From an uncultured Bacilli bacterium (GTDB lineage: Bacteria > Bacillota_I > Bacilli_A > RF39 > UBA660): 64,000 nucleotides of DNA. The notes beneath the pieces are model-generated. The model ran no database searches, was not told the DNA's origin, and was given only the letters and a program-made list of their open reading frames with translations. The DNA is taken from assembly GCA_934101795.1 (NCBI GenBank), contig CAKORY010000003.1, positions 41,873 through 105,872 on the forward strand, written 5' to 3'. The position numbers were made by a program, and so were the translations under genes. Positions 6,277 through 53,895 of the stretch are shown here, in pieces (the first letter of the stretch is position 1; every line of letters starts with the position of its first letter).

Positions 6277-6293
6277 TTTTATTCCTCCTTATA

Positions 6294-6998
6294 TTATTGT
6301 CCATGTCTAATACTTAGCGGCAAACTGTCGTAAACAGAGTTGATTAGTGCATCACATTCACTCTTGTTAGTTTTTGTTGCATTACTATAATCAGTACAAG
6401 CAAATGCAGTAATATTTGCTCTAACTGTAATTTCATCATTACCAGAATTATTCGTACAATCATAGTAACCTAGTCTGCATCTGTTTTTTATTATAAAATC
6501 TTTAATGCCTTTTGCTGTTACAGCAGTTTGTGCAGTATCATTTTTTGTTTCATTGTTTTTGTTTTCTTTATTATCTGTATCACTTACATTTTCAAGTGCA
6601 TTACCTTCAAGTATTGCATCTATTCTTTCTACCATATCAAATGTGGTTGAATCACCTACAACATTGAATGTATTAGATTTACTTTTAATTTCTACACTGG
6701 CTTTTGGTGGGGCTTCATAAACTCCATAAAAGCTTACTGTGTAAGTTGTGTTTAATGCGGCATTTTCTGAAAAACGACGTATAAAACTTTCATAAAATTT
6801 TTCTTTATTTATTTTTACTTCACCATAGGTTCTATAATAAGAATAATCTACTGCATCAATCATAGATGCTTCAGTTATTTCTTTAATTAGATAGTAATCT
6901 TGTGTGCTACTTGTTGTAAGATTTTGAACAAGTAGCATTATTACTACGATTACTATACCTAATAGTATCAACCAGTATGCCCAGAATGCATTCTTCAT
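6294..6998 (-). CDS. membrane-anchored hypothetical protein of the pilus operon
   Basis: N-terminal helix FWAYWLILLGIVIVVIMLLV. The extracytoplasmic domain has 5 Cys near the C-terminus. Sits in the operon. Confidence 0.45.
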   Translation of the reverse strand: MKNAFWAYWLILLGIVIVVIMLLVQNLTTSSTQDYYLIKEITEASMIDAVDYSYYRTYGEVKINKEKFYESFIRRFSENAALNTTYTVSFYGVYEAPPKASVEIKSKSNTFNVVGDSTTFDMVERIDAILEGNALENVSDTDNKENKNNETKNDTAQTAVTAKGIKDFIIKNRCRLGYYDCTNNSGNDEITVRANITAFACTDYSNATKTNKSECDALINSVYDSLPLSIRHGQ

Positions 6999-7009
6999 TT
7001 AGTCACCCC

Positions 7010-10492: not shown

Positions 10493-11259
10493 ATTATACT
10501 TCTCCTACGTTTCTTTATTATTATATATGTTGTACTTCCAACTGCGACAACCAATATTGCTCCCCCGATGATAAATGGCACTTTATGTTCAACAATAAAG
10601 TTTTGAACTTTTTTATACCATTTTTCATTTTCTTTAGTTTCTTCTTCTTTTTGAATTTTCTTTTCTACTTCTTTATATACCCTACCAGTAAAAACATCAA
10701 AACCGATATTTTCATATGTTACATATCTTTGACATAAATACGAATCAGGAATATTTTTACAGATATCATATGTTGAGTAATCATTATATCTTGGTAAAGC
10801 CTGATATAGTGTTTTTAATATCGTTCCTTCACATCCTGTAGCACTTGAGGCATAAACCTTAATTGTATATGTTATCAGCTCATCAATTTCGTGCCAATCA
10901 AATGATATGTTTCCGTTTTTTGTGTCACTATATTGATATATAGTTTTATCATTGTTATAATCATTTGTTACTTCGACATACATATTTTCAGTTAAATTCA
11001 AAATATTTACTTGAATATATTCTGTTGTGGCTTCATATGTATCTTCGTATTCAGTTCCTATTAAAGCATCGGAAATTGTATATTCATCTTTATTCATTAC
11101 CCTTTCCTTAATTTCATAATTTGCCTTTACATTTGTTATTTCATTATTTAACTTTGCTTTTTCTTCATAACCACATGTAGCTGCGTTTACATTTGTTAAT
11201 AAAAATAGTGATGAAAAAGCAATTATTGCAGTTTTTTTAAAACTATACATTTTGCCCAC
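10489..11259 (-). CDS. secreted protein with C-terminal membrane anchor; first gene of the operon
   Basis: Signal peptide (IIAFSSLFLLTNVNA). C-terminal TM helix plus basic tail (FIIGGAILVVAVGSTTYIIIKKRRRSII). No LPXTG motif seen. Confidence 0.5.
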   Translation of the reverse strand: MGKMYSFKKTAIIAFSSLFLLTNVNAATCGYEEKAKLNNEITNVKANYEIKERVMNKDEYTISDALIGTEYEDTYEATTEYIQVNILNLTENMYVEVTNDYNNDKTIYQYSDTKNGNISFDWHEIDELITYTIKVYASSATGCEGTILKTLYQALPRYNDYSTYDICKNIPDSYLCQRYVTYENIGFDVFTGRVYKEVEKKIQKEEETKENEKWYKKVQNFIVEHKVPFIIGGAILVVAVGSTTYIIIKKRRRSII

Positions 11260-11362
11260 CTACCTATGTTTTAGTTTATCATATTATTTAAGTTTTTTCA
11301 ATTCTAAATTGATAATAATTTATAAATATGGTATATTTATATTGTAGAAATCGGGGTAAATA

Positions 11363-12169
11363 ATGAAAAAAGTTTTTTTAGTAATTTTTATTTTTATAAT
11401 TTGTTTAACTTTATATGGTTTTTTTATTAATCCAAAAGGATTTAAAATTATATCTAAAAATATAGAAGTTCAAAATCTTCCTGACTCCTTTGATGGTTTT
11501 AAAATACTTCAATTATCCGACTTTTTAATAAAGGACAAAAATGATTTAAACAGAATTAAAAATATTTCTGAGAAGGTAAATGACTTAAAACCAGATATTA
11601 TAGTTTTTACCGGAGACTTACTATATAAGAATAATAATTTAGATAAAGATGATATTAATAAACTAAAAGAATTATTAAAGAATATGGAGTGTACTTTATA
11701 TAAATATGCTGTCATCGGAGATAATGATGAAGTAAATAAATATAGTGAAATAATGAATGATGCTAATTTTAAAATATTAGATAATGAATCAGAATATATA
11801 TTTTATAAGGATGTAAAACCTATTAAGATAACAGGTTTAACTAATCTAGATAATTTTAATAAAGCTTTAAATATTGAAGATAATTTAGAAACTACTTTTA
11901 ATTTAGTTATTACTCATTATCCAGATTATTTTGAAACTTTAAAAAATAATGACATTGATGTTATGCTTGCTGGTCATTCATTAAATGGGCTTGTTGTTTT
12001 ACCTTTTTATGGTGGTATAATTTCAACAGATTGGTCTCAAAAATATAAATATGGTAGTTATGAAGAAAATAATTCTAAATTATTTATTTCTGGTGGTATT
12101 GGTACTCATAAAATAGAATTTAGATTATTTAATAAACCTGAAATAAATTTGTATTTATTAAAAAAATAA
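11363..12169 (+). CDS. membrane-anchored calcineurin-like metallophosphoesterase (YkuE-like)
   Basis: Motifs LSDFL, FTGDL, GDND, THYPD, AGHSLNG. N-terminal TM helix. Confidence 0.7.
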   Translation: MKKVFLVIFIFIICLTLYGFFINPKGFKIISKNIEVQNLPDSFDGFKILQLSDFLIKDKNDLNRIKNISEKVNDLKPDIIVFTGDLLYKNNNLDKDDINKLKELLKNMECTLYKYAVIGDNDEVNKYSEIMNDANFKILDNESEYIFYKDVKPIKITGLTNLDNFNKALNIEDNLETTFNLVITHYPDYFETLKNNDIDVMLAGHSLNGLVVLPFYGGIISTDWSQKYKYGSYEENNSKLFISGGIGTHKIEFRLFNKPEINLYLLKK

Positions 12170-12190
12170 TCGCATTCGCGATTATTTTTT
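12168..12190. terminator. bidirectional intrinsic terminator
   Basis: AATCGC-ATTC-GCGATT hairpin, with A-run on the left and T-run on the right, between convergent genes. Confidence 0.5.
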
Positions 12191-12476
12191 ATAGATATTT
12201 TACCATTTTGAAGTTAGCATTTAGTTTGGCAATTAATTCTTCTTTATCGTATTTAGAAAAACTTTCTTCAAAATTACTAGCATCCATTAAGAACATATCT
12301 GGATAATTTATAAATATTTCTTTATAAGTTTCAATACCTAAGTTTTTTAAATATTCTAAATTTGTCTTTACTAGATTTTCATGTTCTTCGATTACTTTTT
12401 TCATTTTTTCTGGAGTGTTATTTTCATACTCGCTAATATCACTGTCTAAAAAACCATATTCTTTTAAAAAAATCAT
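12189..12476 (-). CDS. hypothetical protein with mTERF-like helical repeat
   Basis: LEYLKNLGIETYKEIFINYPDMFLMD. 4-nt overlap with the upstream gene. Confidence 0.4.
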   Translation of the reverse strand: MIFLKEYGFLDSDISEYENNTPEKMKKVIEEHENLVKTNLEYLKNLGIETYKEIFINYPDMFLMDASNFEESFSKYDKEELIAKLNANFKMVKYL

Positions 12477-13135
12477 GCTACTCTCCCTTTTACTTCTTCT
12501 TTATTTGCTTCTAAAATTTCATCTATACTTGATATTAAATATTCTAAATTATCACTATATGCTTTAAAAGCTTCTACTAGTGATTCTTTAATTCCTAAAC
12601 CTTGTTTTTCAACTTTTGCTAATTTTTCGTATACTTCATTTTTTTTATCTTCCATAGCAAATGTTTCCATTACTCTATCTGCTAAGTCTTTTAGCTCTGC
12701 ATCCATTACACTGGGAGTTATATCACGGGTTACACTACTATTTTGTAAAACATAGTTATAACCCCTTTCACTAAATAAAAATGATTGATACTTTCCTTTT
12801 TCACTTTTATATGGAATTCCTAAATGTTCAAGTTCACCGATTCTTTTTATAACTTTATCAACATCTTGTTTTAAAAATGATGGTGTTTGAATATAAGCTT
12901 CTAAAAAACCTAAATCTTTAGCTCTTAATACTGCTTTTTTTAGAATTTCAGGTTCTATACTTAGAACTATCCAATCACTTGGTTTTAAATTTATACCATA
13001 TTCTTTTAATAATTCTTTATTTCCATCATTTGCAAGTTCTAATGATATTAAGAACTTTTCTGGATGTTCTTTGTTTACGTCAAACCCAACTTTTTCTTCT
13101 TCGTATATACTTTTTACTTCTTCAAATGATTTCAT
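12473..13135 (-). CDS. hypothetical protein with mTERF-like helical repeats
   Basis: LLKEYGINLKPSDWIVLSIEPEIL, AKDLGFLEAYIQTPSFL, LEHLGIPY. Confidence 0.4.
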   Translation of the reverse strand: MKSFEEVKSIYEEEKVGFDVNKEHPEKFLISLELANDGNKELLKEYGINLKPSDWIVLSIEPEILKKAVLRAKDLGFLEAYIQTPSFLKQDVDKVIKRIGELEHLGIPYKSEKGKYQSFLFSERGYNYVLQNSSVTRDITPSVMDAELKDLADRVMETFAMEDKKNEVYEKLAKVEKQGLGIKESLVEAFKAYSDNLEYLISSIDEILEANKEEVKGRVA

Positions 13136-13148
13136 TATATACTCCTTT

Positions 13149-14411
13149 CTAATAAGCCATTAACGGAACCTTTTTAGGATCTAATCCACTTATTTGTAAT
13201 ACATTTATTGTATTATTTAAACCTTTTAAATCATATTTAACTAAAATACTTGGCATTAAACTAATATCACGAGCTTCTTTACCAATGTTTATTAACTTTT
13301 CTAATTTTTCTTTTAATTCTTTATCATAAAGAATTTCAGGATTTTCTTTTATAACATCAAGAGCTATTTTGTATTCTTTTAATACACTAACATTTGTTTT
13401 TATTAATTCTTCATCATAATTAGCAAGAATCTTTTCTAACTCTACACTTGTTAATATATTAGCATTTACATCTAAAGATGTTAATAATGTAGTTAATTTT
13501 TCTTTTTCTGGTTTTTCATTAGCTACTTCAGTTATCATTTCAGAATTATCTTCGCTTAATATTGGTGCAGCTTCTTTTTGTTTTTCTACTTGTGGTATGT
13601 TATTTTCTGTAATTACTTTATCAAAAATATCTTCTAAAGCTGATGGAGCTTCTAGGCTAGCTTCAACTTCTGGAGCATTTTCTTTAACTTCGTTTACTAC
13701 TTCCTTATTTTCAATATGAGATTCCTTTTTAGCTTCAACTAAAACATCTGTTATTGTTTTTCTGCTTGCTTTATCCCTACTTTTGTAAATGCCATCATAT
13801 TCATAAAGTGCATCTTCTGGGAACATTAGAATTTTTGCAGCTTCTCTTTGTTCGTCTTCATTAAATTCAAATTTTTCAAGTAAGCTTGTAATAGCATCTC
13901 TGGTTATATTGATATTACCTTCTAAAGCTAAATTAAAGTATTCGTTTAGTTTTGCTTGATTACTTAATGCTTCATCTTTTCTAATGCCTAATTCTTCAAC
14001 TTTTGTTATAGCATTATTCATTTCTGTTTCAACATTTTCAAGTTCTTCACTAGCAAGTTTATTTTCATCAACAACTTTTTCTATTGTTGTTGGTAACATC
14101 TTGTTTACTTTTTCATTGATTGATGCTGGATCAAAATCAATTTGTAAACGATCTAATACATTAGCAAAATCATCTCTATTTATATTACTAAGTAGAGATA
14201 TTAATTTGTTTCCTTCTTCTTGGAGTGTTTCTTCTTCTTTAGTTAATTTAGCTATTTTATCAAGTAGAACTTCTTTTTCATTTTTTGTTCTTTCACCAGT
14301 TTCAATAGCTTCTTGTCTTTCTTTATTCATTTTTGCTAGTATTACGCTATCTTCACCACGAAGATTGTATAATTTATCTAGTAATGCTTTTACTTCATTT
14401 GATATTTTCAT
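13149..14411 (-). CDS. coiled-coil protein with C-terminal mTERF-like repeats
   Basis: Long E/K-rich heptad-like N-terminal half. The C-terminal part has LKEYKIALDVIKENPEILYD and INIGKEARDISLMPSILV. Confidence 0.4.
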   Translation of the reverse strand: MKISNEVKALLDKLYNLRGEDSVILAKMNKERQEAIETGERTKNEKEVLLDKIAKLTKEEETLQEEGNKLISLLSNINRDDFANVLDRLQIDFDPASINEKVNKMLPTTIEKVVDENKLASEELENVETEMNNAITKVEELGIRKDEALSNQAKLNEYFNLALEGNINITRDAITSLLEKFEFNEDEQREAAKILMFPEDALYEYDGIYKSRDKASRKTITDVLVEAKKESHIENKEVVNEVKENAPEVEASLEAPSALEDIFDKVITENNIPQVEKQKEAAPILSEDNSEMITEVANEKPEKEKLTTLLTSLDVNANILTSVELEKILANYDEELIKTNVSVLKEYKIALDVIKENPEILYDKELKEKLEKLINIGKEARDISLMPSILVKYDLKGLNNTINVLQISGLDPKKVPLMAY

Positions 14412-35727: not shown

Positions 35728-36000
35728 TTGAAAGAAAGTATTTGTGTGATTGCTAAGGAAATATTAGAGATAATATCAAAGCACTGGTGTTCGAACCAAT
35801 ATATTATGAAAATTGCAAATGTTTCTGCATCAACAGCTATCAAGATTAAACAATCAATTCAGAAAGAATTTAGGAAGAAAGAGCCTAATAAGTTTATGCC
35901 TGCTTATTGTATACCTACCAAAGAAGTCATTAAATATTTTGATTTAGATATAGAGTTTCTTAAATCAATAGCATACTTTGATAAGAAGATTAATGATTGA
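35728..36000 (+). CDS. small putative DNA-binding protein (DUF3173-like logic), island edge
   Basis: TTG start. HTH-like IMKIANVSASTAIKIKQSI, then YCIPTKEVIKYFDLD. Weak. Confidence 0.3.
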   Translation: MKESICVIAKEILEIISKHWCSNQYIMKIANVSASTAIKIKQSIQKEFRKKEPNKFMPAYCIPTKEVIKYFDLDIEFLKSIAYFDKKIND

Positions 36001-36238
36001 TTATCTAAATAAATGCCTTCCACTTGGAAGATTTAGATCCATAACTATTATTGATGATAATGTCTCTTGTTTGATTATTGTTATAAATGATGAAGATGGA
36101 AATATAACTATTCCAATTATTACTAGCATAGATATTGCAAATAAAATAATAAACAATTGTGAAGATGATTCTTTAATTGCTATCAAGGGCAAAATAGATG
36201 CTGATGAAAATGGTTTAATAATTAGAGCAAAAAAATAA
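35993..36238 (+). CDS. small hypothetical protein
   Basis: ATG at 35993 overlaps the previous stop by 8 nt (ATGATTGA). No recognisable motif. Confidence 0.3.
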   Translation: MIDYLNKCLPLGRFRSITIIDDNVSCLIIVINDEDGNITIPIITSIDIANKIINNCEDDSLIAIKGKIDADENGLIIRAKK

Positions 36239-36283
36239 CATTTTTAGGTCATAAAGAAAGAGCCGATTAATTTCGACTCTTAT

Positions 36284-39200
36284 TTATTTAATGAATTTAT
36301 CTATATCTTCTAATATATAAGCATTTATATTAACTTTCATGGCTTTATCACTTATCAAAGGCTCATTAACAATAAAGCAATAATCAATTCTCCATTTTTT
36401 CTTTTCTAAGCCATAATGTTGAATAATATCCGCAATATGAGCTTTGCACCACTCTACTCTTTTCATATGCTTATTATAAAAGCTTTTTTTATTATTAGGA
36501 TCAAACAAATCATGGTATTCATTATACATTTCATACATATTTCTTGATAATTCAAAATTTTTAACTTCACACACGATAATTCTTTTAAACTTTTTAGAGA
36601 TAAAAAGTACATCAATATCTCCTAATGTATTCTTATCTGAATTATTTATTTTTATACCATTAATTTTACTAACTTTTTTATATACAATGGAATTTGGAAA
36701 TGTACACAAATAATTATATACTTTTTCGTTAAAGTCTTCTCCACTTTGTTTATTTATAATACCAAGGTAAGTTTTCATCTTTTTGCTTCTTGCCTTAAGT
36801 GTAGCATTATTAATTATTTCGAACAAAAAGTATATCGCATTTAAAAATGACCTATAACCATAAATAATTTCATCTTTATAAATAATAAGTGGTTTTCTAT
36901 TTAATGAAAGTTCCCTATTGTTTCTCCATGGAAATACATCTACATTTCGATATGGTGTTGGCGGATTTAAATAATCTTCTCTTTCAACTTGAGATAAGTA
37001 TAAAATAATTTTATTTAAAACATCATCACTAACTTGATTATTTGTCTGATCTTTTAGTTCTTTTATAGTCGTTGAATACAATGTGTTAAAATCACCATTT
37101 TTATCCTCGGCTATTTCCAACAATGATACAGTTACTTCAGTAAAATCTTTAAATGTAAATCCAAATTCATCTTCAAAAGCTTCTTCAAATCCAGGAATAT
37201 CTTTTTTCTCAGTTTCATATTGCGATATCATTTTTTGTTTATCTTTTGCTCTGGCTCCCATCCTACCCATCTTTGCATTTTTCAAAAAATGGTTTACTCT
37301 TATCAAGAAATCTTTATTGTATCCTAATCGATTAGAATTTAATAAGGTTAATGTATTATCAGCCATTTTATAGTTGTAAATATCACATATATATGCATAA
37401 TCAATTATTTTGGAAGCTTCTGTTAAAATATATTCAATTTCATATAGTGAAATATCATCGCTTCCATCTATTTTTATTGATGCAGCTAATTCTATAATAA
37501 ATTTTAATGCGACTGAAGTTCGATTCAAATCATTTATCTTTTCATCTATCTCTTTTTTTCTATCAGGATAGCATACTACATCGCTAGCATAATTTGCTTG
37601 TCTTATTAATAATGATGATAAATTTTTTTCAAACTCTAGATATAAAAAATCTATTAACTTACGCTTATTATACTTTTTAATTTTCTTCAGAATATTATTG
37701 TATAGATGTCCAACGATATCATTTAAAATTTTATAATCTTTTATTTTACCATAATGTATTTTTTTGTCATCTTTTAAATATAGTCCTACATCATCTATTA
37801 TCAAATTTGAAATAGCATTACTAACGCATAAAACACACTCATCTTCAAAAGGAAGCATATACCCATCCCCATTAGAATTCATAATAATTAGTTTCTTTTT
37901 ATACTTATTACTAAAAATCTGATTAATCAACTCACTTGGATACTCAATTTGATAGATTTCACAGATTCTCTTTACTATATTAGATATAAAATCTTTTTCT
38001 TTATCATTTTCAGCGGACTCGAAATACCTTAAAGAGTTTTTTTCAAAAGTAATGTCTAACTGTCTACTATTAATATTGAATAATATTTTACCAACTTCGC
38101 TATCTTTATCATAATGTGTAATATATATTGATGGATCACAATGAATATTAATTTTAAACACTCCATTCAAATCTTTAAATAATGTTGAAAATTGATTTAA
38201 CCAATATGAAATCATATCTATAATTAGATTTGTTATATGGTAAGAATTATTATCAATATTTTCTTCGCTTAAAACCCATATATTAAATTTATTAAATTCA
38301 AGCAAATTGTTTAATTGATGCTTGTAAAATAATCCAGGAGCAAAACAAACTCCATCTTCTTTTTTCATCACTTCTAATAAAGATGTTCTACTAAAAAGAG
38401 CTAAGTGATAACCATTTTTTATATAAGATTTTAAAATATAATCACTACTATATTCACCAATAAAAAACAATAATGCTTCTTTTGAATCACATTCATCACC
38501 TAGATAGAATGATTTATCTCTTTCAGAAAAAAGAGCAACAAAATTTAGTTCAGTAAACAAATTCTTTTTATAATGTTTTAATCTATTTCTAGCAACAATA
38601 TACTTGTATAAAAACATATTTTCTTCAGACTCATTAATACATATTGACGTTAATTCATATGGAGAAAGCATTAGTAAATTTTTATTAGAATTCAAATATA
38701 CCGCACATATCGTATTTCTACCAATAGTTGTTGGGGTAATGATTGATACAATTTTATCTTCTTTAAAACCATGTTTTAATAATTGCTTTTTGACATTTTT
38801 TATTCGATTACTAATATAATTATTATTTATTGAATATTTATATTCTTTGTTAGTTTCATAATCTTTTCCATCATCAAATAACACAATATTGTAAAAAACT
38901 ATATCATTGCCACACAAATATATAGATTCATCAACTATATTATTACTTTCAAGTTCCAATTCAAATTGTTTACTATCTAATAATTGAAAACCCATACGTG
39001 CAAAATCTCTATGCAAGTCATTCAAAAGTAAAAGATTATAATCTTTGAGAACATCAATTTTATAAGACATAAAAAACTTTATTATCATATCCATTAATAA
39101 CATAATAATAATAGTGCAATCTACCAAAACAAATTTCTCACCATATCTAACAAATGGTCTACAATAAAACTTTTGATTATCGAAATCATCTATTTCATCA

Positions 39201-39883
39201 ATACTTATTTCTCCAAATTCAATAACAAGTTGTTCATATTGTTCTCCAAATAATTCAACCATATCTTCTTTACTAAAAGCCACTGTTTCTTTACTTGATT
39301 TAAGAACGTTGGCTGAAGGTATTTTAATATCAATATCTTTATTAAAAGATTTTAAATCATTAAGTTTAATATTTAATGAATTATAAACAAACTCGGATAC
39401 ATTTAGTAAACCCTTAACAATAATATTAAACTTTCTATAATCCTCATTTGGAAAGTCATCTTTATGGACAACTAATACTTTTAACATATGATCTAAATAA
39501 TGTGGAGCTAACGTGCTAGCTCCCATAAACAAATGATAATTTCCATAATAAATGACAGGTAATGCAAAAGGAAATTCAGGAGGATCTATCATATTTTTTC
39601 TATTAAGATTAGAAAATTCCTTTATAAAGTACTCAAGCTTATTACGACTCATGATATTTTTGCTCTTAAAATCATCGTACTTTAATGATAGAGCCGTACT
39701 TATAATTGCTTGAAAAACAACCGATTTACTTTGATTTTCGGGAATTAAAATTAATCCAGATATTTGTGATAGGAAATCAATCATATTATAATTTTTTAAT
39801 TCTTCCCTTAAACGTTTTATTACTTCAGCATCTCCTTTATTTAATTTTTCCATATTATTATTAAAAACTAATTCTGGAACCAT
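36284..39883 (-). CDS. large orphan protein (1199 aa) with C-terminal PD-(D/E)xK nuclease motif; candidate single-gene defence protein
   Basis: AGGAGG RBS. GDIDVLFISKKFKRIIVCEVKNF (D...E-x-K) is encoded at 36560..36619. No Walker A or helicase motif was seen in the preceding ~1090 aa. Confidence 0.6.
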   Translation of the reverse strand: MVPELVFNNNMEKLNKGDAEVIKRLREELKNYNMIDFLSQISGLILIPENQSKSVVFQAIISTALSLKYDDFKSKNIMSRNKLEYFIKEFSNLNRKNMIDPPEFPFALPVIYYGNYHLFMGASTLAPHYLDHMLKVLVVHKDDFPNEDYRKFNIIVKGLLNVSEFVYNSLNIKLNDLKSFNKDIDIKIPSANVLKSSKETVAFSKEDMVELFGEQYEQLVIEFGEISIDEIDDFDNQKFYCRPFVRYGEKFVLVDCTIIIMLLMDMIIKFFMSYKIDVLKDYNLLLLNDLHRDFARMGFQLLDSKQFELELESNNIVDESIYLCGNDIVFYNIVLFDDGKDYETNKEYKYSINNNYISNRIKNVKKQLLKHGFKEDKIVSIITPTTIGRNTICAVYLNSNKNLLMLSPYELTSICINESEENMFLYKYIVARNRLKHYKKNLFTELNFVALFSERDKSFYLGDECDSKEALLFFIGEYSSDYILKSYIKNGYHLALFSRTSLLEVMKKEDGVCFAPGLFYKHQLNNLLEFNKFNIWVLSEENIDNNSYHITNLIIDMISYWLNQFSTLFKDLNGVFKINIHCDPSIYITHYDKDSEVGKILFNINSRQLDITFEKNSLRYFESAENDKEKDFISNIVKRICEIYQIEYPSELINQIFSNKYKKKLIIMNSNGDGYMLPFEDECVLCVSNAISNLIIDDVGLYLKDDKKIHYGKIKDYKILNDIVGHLYNNILKKIKKYNKRKLIDFLYLEFEKNLSSLLIRQANYASDVVCYPDRKKEIDEKINDLNRTSVALKFIIELAASIKIDGSDDISLYEIEYILTEASKIIDYAYICDIYNYKMADNTLTLLNSNRLGYNKDFLIRVNHFLKNAKMGRMGARAKDKQKMISQYETEKKDIPGFEEAFEDEFGFTFKDFTEVTVSLLEIAEDKNGDFNTLYSTTIKELKDQTNNQVSDDVLNKIILYLSQVEREDYLNPPTPYRNVDVFPWRNNRELSLNRKPLIIYKDEIIYGYRSFLNAIYFLFEIINNATLKARSKKMKTYLGIINKQSGEDFNEKVYNYLCTFPNSIVYKKVSKINGIKINNSDKNTLGDIDVLFISKKFKRIIVCEVKNFELSRNMYEMYNEYHDLFDPNNKKSFYNKHMKRVEWCKAHIADIIQHYGLEKKKWRIDYCFIVNEPLISDKAMKVNINAYILEDIDKFIK

Positions 39884-39966
39884 GATATTCCTCCTAACTA
39901 AAAAAGAGCATATTCCATCTTAAAAATGAAACACACTCTATTATTTATATATATTATACCACCAAA

Positions 39967-42900
39967 TTAAAATTTGTTGTTAGATAAACTAAAGAATTTA
40001 TCAAAGAACTCTAATAATTTATCAATAACTTTATTTTTCTTTTCTTGTCTATCATTATTTGGTGTGAACATACTCATTGGAGGAAGTATTGTTGATACTT
40101 CTGTTCCAGTAGTTTCTACTCTCCCCTGTTCAAATGATCTTTGTATAAAGTTATAAGTTTCTTCCTTATTAAGATTTTCTTCAACAATTATTTTATCTAA
40201 TTCTTCTTTCTTTTTACTATTCATAAACGATTCAAAATCAACATATACATTTGAATCTTGGCCTAAAGAGTCAATAAATGCCATAATTAAATCTTTTTTA
40301 TTTCTTAAATCTGGGCTTGCCATTATAGCCTTTTGAATATTTACAAGTATTTCTTTATCTTCCATATTTGAGTCATGGTACTTTTTAACTAATGCCAAAA
40401 TATAATCAATATTAACTTCAATTGACTTAATTAATTCCATTTCAAATATAACATCTTCTGTAACATCCGTTTTTTCTCTTTTTGCTTTATTTCTGAATTC
40501 ATTATAAAGTTCTATGTAGATGCTGTGATAATCCTGTTTATCCCTTTCATTGATTAGTTCTTCATTTTTGAATTCATCGAATGATGATAAGATGTTAGTA
40601 ACTTTTAATATCGCACCATATAGTTTTATAAATTCTTTTTGTTCTGTTTCACTTTGCATTAATTCCCCTGGTGCAAATTTTGAAGTTAACTTTTCAACTA
40701 AAGATTTATACCCTTCAAAGGTTTTACCATTTTCATCTTTATATCCATAGTAGTAATCTTTATATGGTTTTAAAAGTACAATCCCACGTGCATTCTCATC
40801 ACCAAATTTAGCAAGTGCTTCATTAAGTCTATCTTCTAAGTTTCTAAATGAAATTATATTACCATATGTTTTAACACTATTTAAGATTCTATTTGTTCTT
40901 GAAAAAGCTTGAATTAATCCATGCCATTTTAAATTTTTATCAACCCATAATGTATTTAATGTTTTAGCATCAAATCCTGTTAAAAACATATTAGCTACAA
41001 TTAATATATCTATTTCTCTATTTTTCATTCTTAAGGATACATCTTTATAATAGTTTTGAAATTTTTCTGATGTTGTATCATAGCTTGTTCCGAACATGTT
41101 GTTATAATCTTTAATTGCATTTTCAAGAAAAGTTCTATCATCAGTACTTAGTGCTTCAGTTGATTCTGAATTTTCATCAATTACTCCATCTTCTCCATTA
41201 ACTCCATAAGAATATATTAAAGCAACTTTAAGATTACTATTTTTAGAATCTAGTTGTTTTTTAAATTCTGAGTAATATTCCTTAGCCATTTTAATATTTG
41301 ATACTGCAAATATAGAATTAAAACCGTTGATATTTTTTTTGGATTTAATTTCTTCTGTATTTTGTCTTTTAGCTACATCTATAATATTATCTAAAGTTGA
41401 ATAAACATAACTTTCAGATGTCTTTGTCTTCGTAGAGAAATGTTCTATTACGTAAGTTGTAATTAAACATATACGCATTTGATTATCATATAATTTTTCC
41501 TCATCTATGTTATATATCTTTTCATCTTTTACGTCATTTGATATATTTGTTCCACCAACATACTCATATCTAAATGGTAATACGTTTTTGTCTGCTATTG
41601 CATTTACGATTGTATAAGTATGTAATCTTTCTCCAAAGATTTGTTCAGTTGTTTCCGAAATACCTTTTATTGTTCTAGCATTTTCTGGGAATATTGGGGT
41701 TCCTGTAAATCCAAACAAATAATATTTTTTAAAATTTTTAATAATTGCTTTGTGCATATCTCCGAATTGAGATCTGTGACATTCATCAAATATAAATACT
41801 ACATGTTTATCAAATACATTACTATTTTCATTTTTCTTAATAAATTGTGATAATTTTTGTATTGTAGTTATTATTATTTTTGCATTAGGGTCATTTAATT
41901 GTTCTTCTAATACTTTGGTTGATGTATTAGAGTTAGCAGCTCCTTCTTTAAATCTATCATATTCTTTCATTGTTTGATAGTCTAAATCTTTTCTATCCAC
42001 AACAAATAATACTTTATCAATAAAATCTAATTTACTAGCAAGTTGTGATGTTTTAAAAGATGTTAATGTTTTTCCAGAACCGGTTGTATGCCAAATATAT
42101 CCACCTGATTTAATAGTTCCATAGAATTTATTATTGTAGGCTATGGTAATTCTATTTAAAATTTTTTCAGTAGCAACTATTTGATAAGGCCGCATTACTA
42201 ATAATTCTTCTTCAGAAGTAAATACACAATACTTAGTTAAAATATTTAATATTGTATGCTTAGTAAAGAATGTTTTAGCAAAATCGATTAAATCTGTTAT
42301 CCCATTATTTTTTTGATCTGCCCAATATGAAGTAAATTCAAATGAATTAGACTTCTTTTTCTTTTGATTATTGATATGAAATTCCCTTGTAGTATTTGAA
42401 TAATACTTGGTTAATGTTCCATTTGAAATAACAAATATTTGAACGAAATTATATAATCCAGAACCTGCCCAGAATGAATCTCTTTGATATCTTTCTATTT
42501 GATTGAAAGCTTCTCTTAAATCTACTCCTCTTTTCTTTAATTCAATATGAACCAAAGGTAAACCATTAACTAAAATAGTTACATCATATCTATTATCTTG
42601 ATTCCCATCATTATTAACGTATTGATTTAATACTTGAAGATTATTGTTATGAATATTATTCTTATCTATTAAATAAATATTCTTCTTTTCACCTGAATCA
42701 AGAGTTATCTCTTGCTTATAATCTTCTTGAATTAATCTTGTTTTTTCAATGATATAATCATTTTTATTAGCAATTATTTTAGTAAAGAAGTCATCCCATT
42801 CTCCATCGGTAAATCTATAATTATTTAATTTTTCTAATTGCATTCTTAGATTAAGAATCAATTGATCTTCTGAATGTATATTTAATCTTTCATATCCTTG

Positions 42901-43035
42901 TTCAACTAAATTTTTAATTAATTCTTTTTCAAGAGCATCTTCGCTTTGAAAAGATTTTGATTCTCTATTTAATCCCTTATATTCAGCTAATACTGTTGAG
43001 TTATCATTTTCACTTATTAAACTTATACTATTCAT
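39967..43035 (-). CDS. hsdR: type I restriction endonuclease subunit R
   Basis: N-terminal nuclease DVTILVNGLPLVHIELKKRG. Helicase motifs HTTGSGKTLTSF, FDECHRSQ, GFTGTPIF. GGAGG RBS. Confidence 0.9.
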   Translation of the reverse strand: MNSISLISENDNSTVLAEYKGLNRESKSFQSEDALEKELIKNLVEQGYERLNIHSEDQLILNLRMQLEKLNNYRFTDGEWDDFFTKIIANKNDYIIEKTRLIQEDYKQEITLDSGEKKNIYLIDKNNIHNNNLQVLNQYVNNDGNQDNRYDVTILVNGLPLVHIELKKRGVDLREAFNQIERYQRDSFWAGSGLYNFVQIFVISNGTLTKYYSNTTREFHINNQKKKKSNSFEFTSYWADQKNNGITDLIDFAKTFFTKHTILNILTKYCVFTSEEELLVMRPYQIVATEKILNRITIAYNNKFYGTIKSGGYIWHTTGSGKTLTSFKTSQLASKLDFIDKVLFVVDRKDLDYQTMKEYDRFKEGAANSNTSTKVLEEQLNDPNAKIIITTIQKLSQFIKKNENSNVFDKHVVFIFDECHRSQFGDMHKAIIKNFKKYYLFGFTGTPIFPENARTIKGISETTEQIFGERLHTYTIVNAIADKNVLPFRYEYVGGTNISNDVKDEKIYNIDEEKLYDNQMRICLITTYVIEHFSTKTKTSESYVYSTLDNIIDVAKRQNTEEIKSKKNINGFNSIFAVSNIKMAKEYYSEFKKQLDSKNSNLKVALIYSYGVNGEDGVIDENSESTEALSTDDRTFLENAIKDYNNMFGTSYDTTSEKFQNYYKDVSLRMKNREIDILIVANMFLTGFDAKTLNTLWVDKNLKWHGLIQAFSRTNRILNSVKTYGNIISFRNLEDRLNEALAKFGDENARGIVLLKPYKDYYYGYKDENGKTFEGYKSLVEKLTSKFAPGELMQSETEQKEFIKLYGAILKVTNILSSFDEFKNEELINERDKQDYHSIYIELYNEFRNKAKREKTDVTEDVIFEMELIKSIEVNIDYILALVKKYHDSNMEDKEILVNIQKAIMASPDLRNKKDLIMAFIDSLGQDSNVYVDFESFMNSKKKEELDKIIVEENLNKEETYNFIQRSFEQGRVETTGTEVSTILPPMSMFTPNNDRQEKKNKVIDKLLEFFDKFFSLSNNKF

Positions 43036-44119
43036 CTTTTACCTCCACTTTATAGTAATTAATAAAATCATTAAAGGACTTTATAAATATATCTTTTTCA
43101 TGTTCTGTTAAATCTGTATATTCAAATTCGGGCAAACTGCCATGACTATACAAATTAATTAGTTTTATAATTTCTTTTTTATAATCATTATCAGGTATAC
43201 ACTCATCATACTTTTTATATCCAAAATAATTAGAAGTTTTTTCTATTATAATTCTAAACATATTAAAATGAATTTTCTCAAGTGTTTCTTCATTAATAGC
43301 AGTATTTATTTTTTTTATTAAAGTTAAATGATATCCAAACGGTGAGTCGCCTTTCTCCTCAAGGGTATAGATATAATTTTTTTTATTTAAAATATATGAT
43401 TTTAATGTAATTTGTCCTTCTCTGTTTAAAAGATTATATATTGAATTGTAAAATAGTGCATGATGTGTTGTTATTAAAATATTTATTTTAATTTTATTTT
43501 CTTCCATTCTTTGTATCAGTTCAAAAATTTTTATTGCCACATTTAGCATTTTTATATCATCAATAGAAGATACTGGATCATCAATAACTAAATATTCAAC
43601 ATTATCAAATATGTTAGTTGACCTATCTTCTTGATTTTCATTAAGTTCATAAATCATCAAGTCAACAAATGTATAAAATATTGACCAAATAAAAGTACTT
43701 TCTTCGGCTTTCGATATTTTTATACCATGGTCATAACCTTCTATTGTTTTAGCACTAAACTCAATAAATCCTAGTTCTAAATTTATAGACGCTAGTGTTG
43801 AATCATCACAAAATATTTGAAAATTTTTTTCAATTTCATTTTCTAATCCCTGATCCCTTATAATTTTTGCTATCTCTGAATTAATGTCAAATGTTAGTAT
43901 TGAATTGGAATTATTCCATGAAAATTCATCCTGAAACATTGAATTAAAGCATAGTACTTTATCTTCCAATAAATCTTTAAACATTCTTGATATTCTTGTT
44001 TTTCCAGTACCATTAAAAGCATATACTAAATCAACTTTTATTTTTTTTGATGGTCCATCAAGGTTAAGTTTCAATTTCTCAAATACATCTTCTAAATTAT
44101 TTAATGTTGTTTTATTCAT
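43028..44119 (-). CDS. prrC: PrrC-like anticodon nuclease (ABC-type NTPase N-domain plus R-x3-E...H nuclease domain)
   Basis: Walker A AFNGTGKTR, Walker B-like YLVIDDPVSS. C-terminal FRIIIE (R at 43253-55, E at 43241-43) and LYSHG (H at 43142-44), with H 33 residues after E. Sits between hsdS and hsdR as in the E. coli prr locus. 8-nt overlaps on both sides. Confidence 0.7.
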   Translation of the reverse strand: MNKTTLNNLEDVFEKLKLNLDGPSKKIKVDLVYAFNGTGKTRISRMFKDLLEDKVLCFNSMFQDEFSWNNSNSILTFDINSEIAKIIRDQGLENEIEKNFQIFCDDSTLASINLELGFIEFSAKTIEGYDHGIKISKAEESTFIWSIFYTFVDLMIYELNENQEDRSTNIFDNVEYLVIDDPVSSIDDIKMLNVAIKIFELIQRMEENKIKINILITTHHALFYNSIYNLLNREGQITLKSYILNKKNYIYTLEEKGDSPFGYHLTLIKKINTAINEETLEKIHFNMFRIIIEKTSNYFGYKKYDECIPDNDYKKEIIKLINLYSHGSLPEFEYTDLTEHEKDIFIKSFNDFINYYKVEVKDE

Positions 44120-45305
44120 TTTTAAGTTCCTCAAAGTTTAACAATTTATTTCTATAATACTCATATTGTTTTTTTCTTAATTCTATTTCTGCTGGAATTC
44201 CTTCAGATATGTCGTTAACCAATTTATCGAATATATCTAATATACTGGCTATATGAATTTGTTTTTCAATGGAAGGAACAATAAATTCATAATTCATTAT
44301 TACTTGTTTATCTCCCCGTGGCATCTTAGCCCCTTTCGAATTTGAATTATTATATTCAAAGAATGATTCCGATGATAAAACATAGTATAAGAATCGTGGA
44401 TATATTTTTTTAGTATCATTTACTCTTATATCTAAAACATCTCCATTAGTTCCACCACAACAATCAGCAAACCAGATTTTTCTTAAATATGGTCTAATAT
44501 TTCCAATCAAAATATCATTCTTTTCAAATTTAGTTGAATTGCCTGATGTGGGTACATGATAAGACTTTGTTTTTCCTTTTTTATTTTGAAGTAAGTTGTC
44601 CACACCAACATAATTATCTTCACTAAGTTTATCATAACTAATTCTATCATTAGAATAAGAGCATATTTCTTTAAGTTTAACTAATTCAGTTCCATCATTC
44701 AATAATTTTCCACGCCAAAACTCATATTGATTCTTTCTCGCTTCTAGCTCCGCTTCTAGCTCCGCTTCTAGCTCGCTAAATTTATCAAGAATTCTTACTA
44801 TTTCTTCTTGAACTTCTATTGGCGGGGTAGGAATTATAGTATTCTTTATTGCATCCGAACTTAAATTTGGTTGAGCTCCTCCACCTGCTAACCGATAAAA
44901 ATAATTAACTTTATTTAATAAATAATGATATAAAAAACGATTATTCATCCTGTCATCTTTAGGGGTTATCTTTCCAATACGTTGATTTAAATATAATAGT
45001 TTACCAGTGCAATTAATTCCAATTTTACCCGTTGTTGCACCAGACATAGCAATAACTATTTCATCACTACCAACTTTGAAGGGAGATAAATCACTATTAT
45101 AATCAAAAACATCTATATATTTTATATCAGACAAATCTATCTTCTTACCATCAATATTTGTGATTCTGAGTAAAATATCACCTTTAGATTTAAATAGACT
45201 ACTCTTAAATGCATAACCATTTTGAAAATAACAAATTTCACCAATAGTTTTGTACTCAACCCCTTTAGGACACATTTCTTTTATTAAATCATTAATCTTA
45301 CTCAT
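44112..45305 (-). CDS. hsdS: type I R-M specificity subunit S
   Basis: Two target-recognition halves separated by the conserved helix EEIVRILDKFSELEAELEAELEARKNQYEFWRGKLL. C-terminal RKKQYEYYRNKLL. Confidence 0.85.
   Translation of the reverse strand: MSKINDLIKEMCPKGVEYKTIGEICYFQNGYAFKSSLFKSKGDILLRITNIDGKKIDLSDIKYIDVFDYNSDLSPFKVGSDEIVIAMSGATTGKIGINCTGKLLYLNQRIGKITPKDDRMNNRFLYHYLLNKVNYFYRLAGGGAQPNLSSDAIKNTIIPTPPIEVQEEIVRILDKFSELEAELEAELEARKNQYEFWRGKLLNDGTELVKLKEICSYSNDRISYDKLSEDNYVGVDNLLQNKKGKTKSYHVPTSGNSTKFEKNDILIGNIRPYLRKIWFADCCGGTNGDVLDIRVNDTKKIYPRFLYYVLSSESFFEYNNSNSKGAKMPRGDKQVIMNYEFIVPSIEKQIHIASILDIFDKLVNDISEGIPAEIELRKKQYEYYRNKLLNFEELKNE
44739..44774. repeat. perfect 12-bp x3 tandem repeat (CGCTTCTAGCTC) encoding (ELEA)3 in the central spacer helix of HsdS
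   Basis: Read directly: three identical units at 44739-50, 44751-62 and 44763-74. Confidence 0.95.
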
Positions 45306-46866
45306 GGTAATCAACCTCAAGTTCTTTGATTATTTTTTCTAGTTCCTCTCTTATTTTTTGTTGTCTAGGTACAATTTCTGCAAGTTTTCTGTTTACTTCT
45401 TCTATATCAATTGTATTATCCTCAATATTGCTTTTTAAATAAGAATTGACTGATATATTATAATCATTATCTTTAATTTCTTCATAAGTAGCTAAATAAG
45501 ATTTATTGTCAACAGTTTTTCTTTCTTTCAACAAATTAATTATATTATTAATATTTTCATCTGATAATTTATTTTTATTAGTATTTCTAACACATTCATT
45601 AGATGCATCTACAAATAAAATGTTATTATCGGATTTGTTTTTCTTTAACACTAAAATACAGGTTGTTATTGGTGTTCCAAAGAATAAATCTGAAGGTAAT
45701 TGGATGATTGTGTCTACGAAGTTATTATCAATCATATATTTTCTAATCTTTTGTTCCGCTCCACCCCTATAAAGAACACCTGGGAACTCAACTATAGCAG
45801 CCGTACCTATAGGTGAAAGCCATGATAACATATGCATGGTAAATGCTAAATCTGCTTTAGATTCTGGAGCCAACACCCCTGCTGGAGCAAACCTTTCATC
45901 ATTTATTAAAATTGGATTTGATTTACCAGCCCATTTTATTGAATATGGTGGGTTTGATACTATGGCATCAAATGGTTCATCATTCCAATGTGATGGATGA
46001 ATTAATGTATCTCCTCTTTCAATACTAAATTTATTGTAATTAATATTGTGTAAGAACATATTTATTCTAGCTAAATTGTAAGTTGTAAGATTAATTTCTT
46101 GACCGAAAAATCCCTCTCTTACATTTTCTTTTCCAAGAATTTTGGCAAATTTTAAAAGTAATCCACCTGAACCACATGCTGGATCGTACACTTTATTAAC
46201 TGATTTTTTATCCATTATTACTATCTTTGCAAGTAATTCTCCAACTTCTTGCGGAGTAAAAAATTCTCCTCCAGATTTACCTGCATTTGAAGCATACATT
46301 GTCATTAAATACTCATACGCATCTCCAAATAAGTCTATCTTATTTTCTTCATAATTTCCAAAATTTAAATCTCCAATTGCGTTTAATAATTTAACAAGTT
46401 TTTTGTTTCTTTCATCAACCGTATTACCTAATTTATTATCAATTGTAAAATCATCAAATAGCCCTTTAACATCATCTTCTGATGCTGTTCCTCTTGCTGA
46501 TGATTCTATATTATTAAATACATTTGAAATTACAACATTTAGGTTTTCATTTTTATCTGCACCTTTTCTTATATTGCAAAATAATTCACTTGGTAAAATG
46601 AAGAATCCTTTTTCTTCAAGTATTTGACTTTTACCCAATAAGGCTTCTTCATCAGAAATATCTCTATATTTAAAATTTGACATACCTGCTTTTCTTTGAT
46701 TTTCGTTAACATAGTTTTCTATATTTTCTGATATAAATCTATAAAATAGTAAACCTAATACATATTGTTTAAAATCCCATCCGTCTACCGAGCCTCTTAG
46801 TTCATTTGCTATTTTCCAAATTGTTTTATGTAATTCTTCTCTTTCTATTTCTTTTTTATTATTCAT
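45298..46866 (-). CDS. hsdM: type I R-M N6-adenine DNA methyltransferase subunit M
   Basis: Start moved to MNNKKEIE (AAAGGTGG RBS). HsdM N-domain LHKTIWKIANELRG. SAM motif YDPACGSGGLL. Catalytic SNPPY. Confidence 0.9.
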   Translation of the reverse strand: MNNKKEIEREELHKTIWKIANELRGSVDGWDFKQYVLGLLFYRFISENIENYVNENQRKAGMSNFKYRDISDEEALLGKSQILEEKGFFILPSELFCNIRKGADKNENLNVVISNVFNNIESSARGTASEDDVKGLFDDFTIDNKLGNTVDERNKKLVKLLNAIGDLNFGNYEENKIDLFGDAYEYLMTMYASNAGKSGGEFFTPQEVGELLAKIVIMDKKSVNKVYDPACGSGGLLLKFAKILGKENVREGFFGQEINLTTYNLARINMFLHNINYNKFSIERGDTLIHPSHWNDEPFDAIVSNPPYSIKWAGKSNPILINDERFAPAGVLAPESKADLAFTMHMLSWLSPIGTAAIVEFPGVLYRGGAEQKIRKYMIDNNFVDTIIQLPSDLFFGTPITTCILVLKKNKSDNNILFVDASNECVRNTNKNKLSDENINNIINLLKERKTVDNKSYLATYEEIKDNDYNISVNSYLKSNIEDNTIDIEEVNRKLAEIVPRQQKIREELEKIIKELEVDYHE

Positions 46867-47145
46867 ATTACTTACCACCTTTTCTTTTATGTATACAATA
46901 TAGAAGCAAGGCACTCTTAACTGTATCATCAACGTTATTCATATTTAATTCAAATATGCTGTCTATTATCTTTTTTACCATCATTATAATCTTTTAAGTT
47001 TTTATTGGTAAATGTGATTTTGTCTATTTCTAATTTATGTCATTTAACAGTTTATTCATGATAATACCCTCCTAAATTATCTGTTATATAGACCATTATA
47101 ACATACAATTTGATAAATTAGCATAAAAAAGGTTAAATTACATTA

Positions 47146-53007: not shown

Positions 53008-53895
53008 TTACCTTTTTCTTGGTTTTATAATATCATTACTATTTATATGGCCTATTAGCAATGATGAATTTATATCATGATTATTAATATTTATCTTAAC
53101 TTTACTTTCATCGTAATTTGCATAACAATATTTACATAAATGATTGCACGAATTATACATACCAATATCCACTAATTCTACACAATTACATGCACTACCT
53201 TTACGTGCTTGCCATTTTTTATATGTCTTACCTGTTAGTTTAAAAGCTAGTTCTTTTGACATGCATTCACCTTTTATAAATCCATATTCTGTTAAGTTTC
53301 TTTCTTCAAAACATGTTTGTACAACCATATTATTATTTTTTGCAATCTTGCTAAAGCTTTCACCAATTAGTTTGTAATCTTCTTCGGTGAGTGAACGATA
53401 CTTTAAGTATGGTAAATTTTTTCTTACATTTTGATAATTATCTATAAATGATACAATTATAGTCTTAACATAGCCTTTTAAAAGACTACATAACTTTTTA
53501 AATGCTTTAATATGATATTCTACGTTGTATTTTTTACTTATAAAAATTGGATCATATCTTACATAGACATTCTCGATACCAATTGTTGTTGATATCTTTT
53601 TGACTGCTTCGATTATATCACTTTTAGATGGTAAATTTGGTTCTATATCATCTTTATAAGGAGTTATTGTTACATGAAAAATATATGGTATTTTTATATC
53701 ATCAAGTTTATCTATGATAGGTATTGGATTTTTGGTACAAAATAATATTAAATCTACATCTTCAAAATTGATTCTACTTACTAAATTTGGATTAAATGGG
53801 TTTCTAACATCTACATATCCTTCTTTAAGTCTATTTAAAAACCATTTTGAATAAAATGCTACAATATCTGTTCTACCACTTACATTTAATATCAT
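53008..53895 (-). CDS. DUF1848-family protein
   Basis: MILNVSGRTDIVAFYSKWFLNRLKEGYVDVRNPFNP... and C-terminal CNHLCKYCYAN, typical of DUF1848 as I recall the family. Confidence 0.6.
   Translation of the reverse strand: MILNVSGRTDIVAFYSKWFLNRLKEGYVDVRNPFNPNLVSRINFEDVDLILFCTKNPIPIIDKLDDIKIPYIFHVTITPYKDDIEPNLPSKSDIIEAVKKISTTIGIENVYVRYDPIFISKKYNVEYHIKAFKKLCSLLKGYVKTIIVSFIDNYQNVRKNLPYLKYRSLTEEDYKLIGESFSKIAKNNNMVVQTCFEERNLTEYGFIKGECMSKELAFKLTGKTYKKWQARKGSACNCVELVDIGMYNSCNHLCKYCYANYDESKVKININNHDINSSLLIGHINSNDIIKPRKR

Follow-up and report, generated by a model that had tools for sequence, protein, structure and literature searches.

With a probability of about 0.8, the 1199-residue protein encoded by the first gene of Table 1 is a divergent member of Upx, a family of single-protein anti-phage defence nucleases, residing in the defence island of an uncultured gut bacterium. 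The gene is located in a window of 64,000 nucleotides, i.e., the whole stretch of DNA that was analyzed. This assignment is based on sequence profiles and on the comparison of a predicted structure with SeUpx, the Upx protein of Salmonella enterica NCTC6026, whose structure was solved by cryo-EM (PDB 9wuf; PMC13099982). A preliminary description of the same DNA had presented the gene as an orphan, which was not borne out, as a word search identified 59 full-length homologues and Upx models matched the protein.

The Upx model of PADLOC (PDLC02221) matched the protein with E=2.5e-19, the match being confined to the C-terminal part, and the NCBIfam model Upx_antiphage (NF042954) matched it with E=3.7e-27 and 94 bits. 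The latter model was also matched by all 26 of the 26 clade members, with a best E-value of 2.9e-44. The score of 94 bits lies far below the equivalog cut-off of NF042954 (1900 bits). As this model is tuned to the close relatives of SeUpx, the shortfall rules out the designation "equivalog", not membership in Upx, which is at the family or superfamily level. A precomputed match to the Pfam family PF28173 ("Upx-like") was present in 59/59 homologues and is also recorded for the identical protein on the contigs L078 and L079. The local Pfam-A scan of the protein gave no significant match; that copy did not contain the PF28173 model. When a profile of the clade was compared with SeUpx (PDB 9wuf chain A), a match with E=4.1e-54 in two collinear blocks was obtained. 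Profile positions 28-293 corresponded to SeUpx residues 40-298 (E=7e-11) and positions 507-1168 to residues 531-1227, and together the two blocks span the N-terminal, middle, and C-terminal domains (NTD, MD, and CTD) of SeUpx. The identity of the 1199-residue protein to SeUpx is about 14-21%.

The AF2 model of the protein (pLDDT 88.9, pTM 0.86) could be superimposed on SeUpx over its whole length (Foldseek E=7.4e-42, probability 1.00, TM 0.70/0.70, 1290 aligned columns, 14% identity). 9wuf was the sole significant PDB match of the model in Foldseek, and the nearest solved folds after Upx were restriction enzymes such as BstEII (E=0.013). Judged from this model, the protein is predicted to possess the three-domain NTD-MD-CTD fold of SeUpx. 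The NTD was modelled with confidence and contains the residues D100, P101, and G121, which are conserved family-wide. In the MD, where the second block collinear with SeUpx begins, a beta-rich module (about residues 494-614) is followed by helices and a low-confidence loop (about residues 660-689). The nuclease core within the CTD has the topology alpha-beta-beta-beta-alpha-alpha-beta in the model. The PD-(D/E)xK fold that had been proposed for the C-terminus is thus present in the model, but the core comprises about 165 residues (about 1034-1199) rather than 115.

Table 1. Features of the Upx-family gene and its immediate surroundings (positions refer to the window; domain assignments are predictions).
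Feature	Position	Strand	Remarks
Predicted Upx-family gene	36284..39883	minus	1199 aa plus stop codon, ATG start; from ORF list, translation, HMMs, structural match
Shine-Dalgarno sequence AGGAGG	39890..39895	minus	6 nt 5' of the ATG (39883..39881); direct reading of the sequence
Terminator-like hairpin	36258..36281	minus	directly 3' of the Upx stop codon; position fits both Upx and the convergent orfB
Terminator-like hairpin with T-run	39905..39939	minus	between the hsdR stop codon and the Upx RBS
N-terminal domain, putative sensor, ~aa 1-490	38414..39883	minus	corresponds to SeUpx NTD 1-515; boundaries approximate
Middle domain plus linker, ~aa 491-689	37817..38413	minus	corresponds to SeUpx MD 516-714; boundaries approximate
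C-terminal domain, ~aa 690-1199	36284..37816	minus	helical scaffold, then PD-(D/E)xK core
PD-(D/E)xK core, ~aa 1034-1199	36287-36784	minus	AF2 model
Predicted catalytic motif G1088-D1089-I-D1091 ... E1106-V-K1108	36554..36622	minus	aligned to SeUpx
Invariant motif P985-W986-R987, CTD	36923..36931	minus	corresponds to SeUpx P1052-W1053-R1054

The predicted catalytic motif of the CTD is contained in the sequence GDIDVLFISKKFKRIIVCEVKNF, which occupies residues 1088-1110. In the family alignment, in which SeUpx is represented by residues 40-298 and 1041-1225 only, taken from HMMER alignments, the counterparts of its GDxD...ExK residues are SeUpx G1158, D1159, D1161, E1176, and K1178. The catalytic residues D1091, E1106, and K1108 thereby correspond to D1161, E1176, and K1178. 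Across homologues from many phyla, GDxD was conserved in 58/58 sequences, the glutamate in 57/58, and the lysine in 58/58. The GDID...ExK motif had already been recognized in the preliminary description, whose DNA span for it (36560-36619) omits a few bases on either side. The PWR motif of the CTD was likewise kept in 58/58 homologues, and relatives from different phyla were recovered with its back-translated pattern. For SeUpx, E1176 and K1178 are needed for defence, and ExK-dependent protection against phages has been demonstrated for SeUpx and for HpUpx of Hydrobacter penzbergensis only (PMC13099982, PMC13601566).

Coordinates, strand, and length of the 1199-codon ORF had been given exactly in the preliminary description, and the AGGAGG ribosome-binding site was found where it had been reported. 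The type I restriction-modification (R-M) neighbour is also real, with an operon of hsdM, hsdS, and hsdR, which includes the anticodon nuclease gene prrC, directly upstream of the Upx gene. Besides type I R-M and PrrC, the flanking defence genes of the island encode ApeA-HEPN, KAP NTPase, and NERD proteins. Scanning of 5 kb revealed six terminator-like hairpins, compared to 0.5 expected, and those on either side of the Upx gene support its being a separate transcription unit. No conserved partner gene was found in 63 Upx loci, the commonest flanking family occurring in five of them. The bilateral hairpins, the 63 loci, and a locus devoid of an R-M system (L006, see below) agree in that Upx works as a single-gene system without an obligatory partner. 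The small downstream ORF orfA was considered as an accessory gene of Upx and dropped, since its distribution extends far beyond that of Upx and it is found next to GmrSD cargo as well.

An exhaustive HMM search (alignment A2) yielded 2584 representative clusters at 50% identity; the homologue set of Evans et al. (2026) comprises 2093 Upx proteins (PMC13601566). Copies of the gene in related genomes are intact and show a dN/dS of about 0.2, and the gene is under purifying selection.

With SeUpx, the protein shares the organization as a single polypeptide of about 1200-1270 residues with the NTD-MD-CTD fold (TM 0.70 both ways), collinear homology in all three domains, identical GDxD...ExK and PWR motifs, the absence of an NTPase motif, and the occurrence as a stand-alone gene in defence islands. 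It differs in being only about 14% identical to SeUpx and 73 residues shorter, and in its host, a gut bacterium with low GC content of the Bacilli/Mollicutes type in contrast to a proteobacterium. Two further characterized homologues, HpUpx and PbUpx (Pyrinomonadaceae), stem from other phyla than the window host; they are divergent, but still terminase-triggered nucleases (Evans et al., 2026; PMC13601566). A Pyrinomonadaceae homologue (L043) could be aligned to residues 23-1179 of the window protein, the identity being 23%, or 21% when taken from the family alignment; this locus harbors two tandem Upx genes, whereas the window contains one. A functional parallel exists with the antiviral STAND NTPase Avs2, in which an effector is likewise fused to a large sensor and becomes active once the latter has recognized the large terminase of a phage. 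[quoted passage not shown] Ragucci et al. reportedly grouped Upx under the nuclease-NTPase systems. The Walker A module typical of that class is absent from the window protein: a regex search for Walker A, P-loop, or GK[ST] patterns and Pfam searches for P-loop or helicase families were negative. The earlier statement that the region preceding the nuclease core shows no recognizable motif was therefore fair.

Regarding the mode of action, the window protein most likely functions as a terminase sensor, by analogy with three other Upx homologues for which experiments have been published. Binding of its large N-terminal region to the ATPase domain of the large terminase of a phage would release the C-terminal Mg-dependent PD-(D/E)xK nuclease, with cell toxicity or abortive infection, or a loss of phage DNA, as possible outcomes. 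The three published homologues differ from one another as widely as the window protein does from them. SeUpx and HpUpx share 16% identity, and SeUpx, HpUpx, and PbUpx are each activated by diverse terminase ATPase domains; terminase binding was deduced from genetics and AlphaFold 3 models rather than from a solved complex (PMC13601566). With the E1176A exchange, SeUpx lost its toxicity as well as its defence function (PMC13601566). The monomeric SeUpx degrades ssDNA as a Mg-dependent 3'-5' exonuclease (PMC13099982) and alone suffices for defence in E. coli (PMC13099982, PMC13601566). The two mechanistic papers name different triggers, namely terminase gp19 and the ejection protein gp16, and assign different roles to the NTD, sensor versus second nuclease (PMC13601566, PMC13099982). 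The proposal of a single-polypeptide sensor-plus-nuclease protein in a defence island, made in the preliminary description, is supported by the homology to Upx and by the gene neighbourhood.

According to Zhou et al., the NTD and the CTD of SeUpx both degrade ssDNA, and a gp16-like ejection protein relieves auto-inhibition of the NTD by the middle domain. This model is backed by truncations, point mutants, and pull-downs, and the NTD residues D122, D127, R129, E147, and D173, which form a minimal DxR PD-(D/E)xK-like site, were needed for the non-canonical nuclease activity (PMC13099982). Two strands and two helices, as in SeUpx, are found in the model of the window protein where this site would lie. 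However, sequence alignment revealed I111, N115, H117, K135, and E164 as counterparts of the five residues, meaning that four of them are replaced and only the exchange of D173 for E164 is conservative. Among the 58 homologues, aspartate was present in four at the D127 column, arginine in seven at the R129 column, and glutamate in two at the E147 column, and at the D122 column aspartate is missing from the commonest residues listed, which account for 50/58 homologues. Since these columns are unconserved, the dual-nuclease property does not define the family. The second site appears to be absent from the window protein and from most homologues, and the invariant CTD site is probably the sole nuclease site of the window clade. 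Evans et al. moreover reported that SeUpx was activated by terminase only and did not respond to gp16 (PMC13601566), and we regard a dual-nuclease mechanism of the window protein as improbable. An even smaller chance is given to a cooperation with the adjacent R-M system and PrrC, in which Upx would serve, e.g., as a back-up effector firing in a PrrC-like manner when the restriction enzyme is inhibited. Such a role is suggested by the location of the gene, which follows hsdR in the same orientation at a distance of 83 bp, in an operon that already carries the R-M-guarding PrrC, and by the HsdR neighbours in the loci L007, L011, and L069. Yet HsdR adjoins Upx in only 4/63 loci, and in L006 an intact Upx gene is located beside recG without an R-M system, only a 267-nt remnant of hsdR being left. 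Further counter-arguments are the terminator-like hairpin between hsdR and Upx, the independent defence by SeUpx in E. coli, and the fact that in other genomes the slot after hsdR is filled by GmrSD, pointing to a cargo hotspot.

A housekeeping or mobile-element nuclease without a role in defence is very improbable in view of the island described above and of the patchy presence of Upx in variable neighbourhoods rich in methylases, Fic proteins, and recombinases. It is also difficult to reconcile with the homology to three proteins for which defence was shown experimentally (PMC13601566) and with the lack of any match among 50,697 phage records. Least probable of all, and already refuted by the match to 9wuf, is the undescribed defence system suggested by the preliminary description, in which a novel sensor would be joined to a Shedu- or NucS-like nuclease core. 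The local Pfam-A result and the naming of the RefSeq homologues, labelled only as "hypothetical protein", would fit such a system, but homology to Upx extends from end to end in sequence and structure, which is an outcome that the preliminary description itself had named as refuting its proposal, and PF28173 covers the protein. The proposed likeness to Shedu (DUF4263) or NucS did not withstand comparison either: neither of these families nor HamA (DUF1837) of Hachiman nor Cap4 was reported at E<=10 in the Pfam and PADLOC scans, in which HMMER filters may hide very weak matches. A kinship with these four families was therefore dropped; they share with Upx only the very broad PD-(D/E)xK restriction-endonuclease-like core and differ in architecture and partners.

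It is conceivable, although rather unlikely, that the window clade, of the Bacillota/Mollicutes type, forms a functionally distinct Upx subfamily of gut bacteria. Its members would be strictly single-nuclease proteins with a sensor possibly directed at a target other than, or besides, the terminase ATPase, and their genes would be exchangeable cargo of a mobile type I R-M island, at whose edge they would occupy the slot between hsdR and orfA, a small and conserved regulator gene. With respect to the dispute between the two 2026 papers, the contrast between the unconserved NTD site and the invariant CTD site favours the view of the NTD as a sensor. In summary, a gene that passes for an orphan when judged by eye, by older releases of Pfam, or by the names given in RefSeq probably belongs to Upx, a family already named, for which a structure was solved and a trigger assigned in 2026. 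The available naming models are too narrow for Upx, as NCBIfam applies its 1900-bit equivalog cut-off and PADLOC matches the C-terminal part only. With 94 bits, proteins of this kind are left as "hypothetical" by the NCBI pipeline, and many Upx genes of Bacillota and gut MAGs may consequently go unnamed.

Searches of three libraries with the 1199-aa protein agreed on one family: PADLOC gave Upx (E = 2.5e-19; residues 710-1160 on model positions 758-1231 of 1271), NCBIfam gave 'anti-phage protein Upx' (E = 3.7e-27; 554-1163 on 568-1207 of 1240), and the PDB sequences gave 9wuf_A (1272 aa; E = 6.7e-6), which is SeUpx of Salmonella enterica. A local Pfam-A copy yielded no significant match, explaining why the preliminary description had recognized no motif in the long N-terminal part. 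A word-indexed search found 59 homologs, nearly all of 1195-1280 aa, and all 59 carry the precomputed Pfam assignment PF28173; this entry, named 'Upx-like' in the context look-up, is also assigned to the exact protein studied here. The profile of a 26-sequence clade alignment matched 9wuf_A with E = 4.1e-54 in two collinear blocks (28-293 versus 40-298 and 507-1168 versus 531-1227). According to the published domains of SeUpx (NTD 1-515, MD 516-714, CTD 715-1272; PMC13099982), the first block lies inside the NTD and the second extends across MD and CTD. The NCBIfam Upx model was matched individually by all 26 clade members. Membership of the protein in the Upx family is close to certain.

An AlphaFold2 model calculated from the clade alignment (mean pLDDT 88.9, pTM 0.86) showed the expected alpha-beta-beta-beta-alpha-alpha-beta core at about residues 1034-1199. 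In the structure search, the next match after Upx was the restriction enzyme BstEII, which was weak (E = 0.013) and confined to the nuclease core. By the match to Upx itself, the homology runs end to end, which refutes the initial suggestion of an undescribed system. The protein adds a divergent member to a family that already has a name, a solved structure and mechanistic studies.

The catalytic columns were read from a pairwise alignment with SeUpx and from a 58-sequence family alignment of genome loci. G1088, D1089 and D1091 correspond to SeUpx G1158, D1159 and D1161, and E1106 and K1108 to E1176 and K1178, which SeUpx needs for defense and toxicity (PMC13099982, PMC13601566). GDxD and the catalytic lysine are present in 58 of 58 homologs and the catalytic glutamate in 57; a P-W-R motif (residues 985-987, SeUpx 1052-1054) is invariant. 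The nuclease motif described initially, GDIDVLFISKKFKRIIVCEVKNF, is present, but the DNA interval given for it was slightly too narrow.

For the NTD, two views have been published. Zhou et al. proposed a second, minimal nuclease requiring D122, D127, R129, E147 and D173 of SeUpx (PMC13099982), whereas Evans et al. regard the N-terminal region as a sensor (PMC13601566). The two strands and two helices of the proposed site also occur in the predicted model of our protein, and the five residues align with I111, N115, H117, K135 and E164. None of these columns is conserved across the 58 homologs: the commonest residues are M (17), V (6) and A (6) at D122, with D absent from the residues listed, N (34), S (8) and D (4) at D127, L (14), T (10) and R (7) at R129, D (16) and K (13), with E in two, at E147, and D (21), N (16) and E (14) at D173. 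By contrast, the adjacent structural residues D100 (54/58), P101 (52/58) and G121 (55/58) are kept. The sample is skewed to relatives of our protein and spans Acidobacteriota, Bacteroidota, Chloroflexota, Actinomycetota, Planctomycetota and Methanotrichaceae archaea. The 'dual-nuclease' site is thus not a feature of the Upx family, which fits the sensor view of Evans et al.

Near-identical copies turned up in several species from gut metagenomes (Mycoplasma sp. CAG:611, Clostridium sp. CAG:762 and Mollicutes/Bacilli MAGs); compared with the copy in the window, they show a dN/dS of about 0.2 and no internal stops. The gene is real, intact and selectively maintained. No Upx homolog was present in the phage records searched. 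An 882-kb Clostridium butyricum megaplasmid (NZ_CP033248.1, 716136-719654) encodes a full-length homolog (30% identity, 97% coverage) annotated only as 'hypothetical protein', which shows that RefSeq leaves divergent Upx proteins unnamed. At E ≤ 1e-3, an exhaustive profile search returned 2584 representative clusters, of which 1151 also passed E ≤ 1e-30. The best 150 matches were mostly of 1160-1290 aa with one collinear match each; about fifteen were shorter, apparently fragments. The farthest word-search homologs (P0057-P0059, 1262-1279 aa) contain a SEC-C motif (PF02810) besides Upx-like and also match SWIM/SEC-C NCBIfam models; they represent a Upx variant with an extra metal-binding motif.

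Features of the Upx gene and its surroundings in the window
Feature	Position	Strand	Remarks
Upx-family ORF	36284..39883	-	ATG start, 1199 codons; ORF list and translation
AGGAGG	39895..39890	-	6 bases ahead of Upx start codon; direct reading of sequence
Nuclease motif, residues 1088-1110	36554..36622	-	
Terminator-like hairpin	39939..39905	-	between hsdR stop and Upx RBS; hairpin scan
Terminator-like hairpin	36281..36258	-	directly past Upx stop codon; hairpin scan
orfA, 84 aa	35746-36000	+	convergent with Upx; JGI name 'predicted transcriptional regulator'
orfB	35993-36238	+	overlaps orfA; convergent with Upx
HsdR	39967-43035	-	upstream of Upx, same strand
PrrC anticodon-nuclease homolog, 368 aa	43028-44134	-	PADLOC PrrC E = 5.7e-87; Pfam AAA_13
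HsdS	44112-45320	-	upstream of Upx
HsdM	45298-46932	-	upstream of Upx
ApeA-HEPN protein, 465 aa	47340-48737	-	ApeA_NTD1 + HEPN_Apea
KAP-family P-loop NTPase, 437 aa	48755-50068	-	
NERD nuclease-related protein, 242 aa	50081-50809	-	topoisomerase-type zinc ribbon
ORF, 559 aa	51140-52819		beyond NERD gene; no Pfam match
DUF1848 protein	53008-53895		beyond NERD gene

The ORF and RBS noted initially were confirmed. Around the gene, six terminator-like sites occur in 5 kb versus 0.5 expected, and the G+C content of the region (24-29%) is similar to that of the remainder of the window. An extended -10-like element, TGGTATAAT (39953-39961, minus strand), lies right after the hsdR stop and upstream of the first hairpin; lacking a -35 match, it was passed over by the promoter scan. 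The putative promoter would thus be followed by the hairpin and then the RBS.

The Upx block is a genuine defense island, with housekeeping genes on both sides (DUF362 and tRNA-Thr at one end, RecG and pyruvate:ferredoxin oxidoreductase at the other). The type I R-M genes and the PrrC gene embedded among them follow the arrangement of a classic prr locus, hsdM-hsdS-prrC-hsdR. At three related loci (L002-L004), hsdM and hsdR were alignable to the window at the DNA level and the hsdS/prrC stretch was not. Upx also occurs independently of the R-M system: among 63 diverse loci, each flanking family occurred in at most five (HsdR in four), and the neighbors that recur are Fic proteins, DNA methylases and a serine recombinase. 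In a gut Bacilli MAG (L006, 8021-14395), a 95% identical Upx directly follows recG, hsdR is reduced to a 267-nt 3' remnant, and the R-M/PrrC/ApeA part is absent. In five loci labeled Clostridia or Bacteroidaceae (L008, L009, L014, L020, L026; Upx 29-42% identical to ours), a different small protein of about 98 aa without family match recurs, encoded on the opposite strand about 0.2-2.5 kb downstream of Upx. A Pyrinomonadaceae MAG (L043, about 6197-13700) contains two tandem Upx homologs, in agreement with the 'second Upx' association of Evans et al. (PMC13601566).

Family searches with orfA and orfB gave no match for either. With 349 clusters, orfA greatly outnumbers Upx, and in five contigs (L080-L084) it ends an HsdS-HsdR-GmrSD-206aa block; four of these contigs differ in the DNA past it, L080 and L084 sharing one flank. 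Since orfA closes a GmrSD block elsewhere with differing DNA beyond, it apparently delimits, together with hsdR, an exchangeable slot for defense cargo at the margin of a mobile island. At about 35484, the homology of close loci to the window stops. At locus L007, orfB is instead found on the upstream side of Upx.

Fold, homology, an intact effector site, independence of neighbors and selective constraint are established here for the protein. SeUpx is a monomeric Mg-dependent 3'-5' ssDNA exonuclease with activity mainly in MD-CTD (PMC13099982). Diverse terminase ATPase domains activate SeUpx, HpUpx and PbUpx, the first two being 16% identical; AlphaFold 3 models thread unfolded terminase strands through the NTD, and the terminase-induced toxicity suggests abortive infection (PMC13601566). 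As this behavior is common to homologs as divergent from each other as our protein is from SeUpx, the same mechanism is the most likely one: a phage terminase would trigger the protein and the C-terminal nuclease would be released, the terminase trigger being an extrapolation from these homologs. What the finding still adds is twofold: divergent Upx proteins are poorly covered by annotation, and the proposed NTD nuclease site is not conserved across the family.
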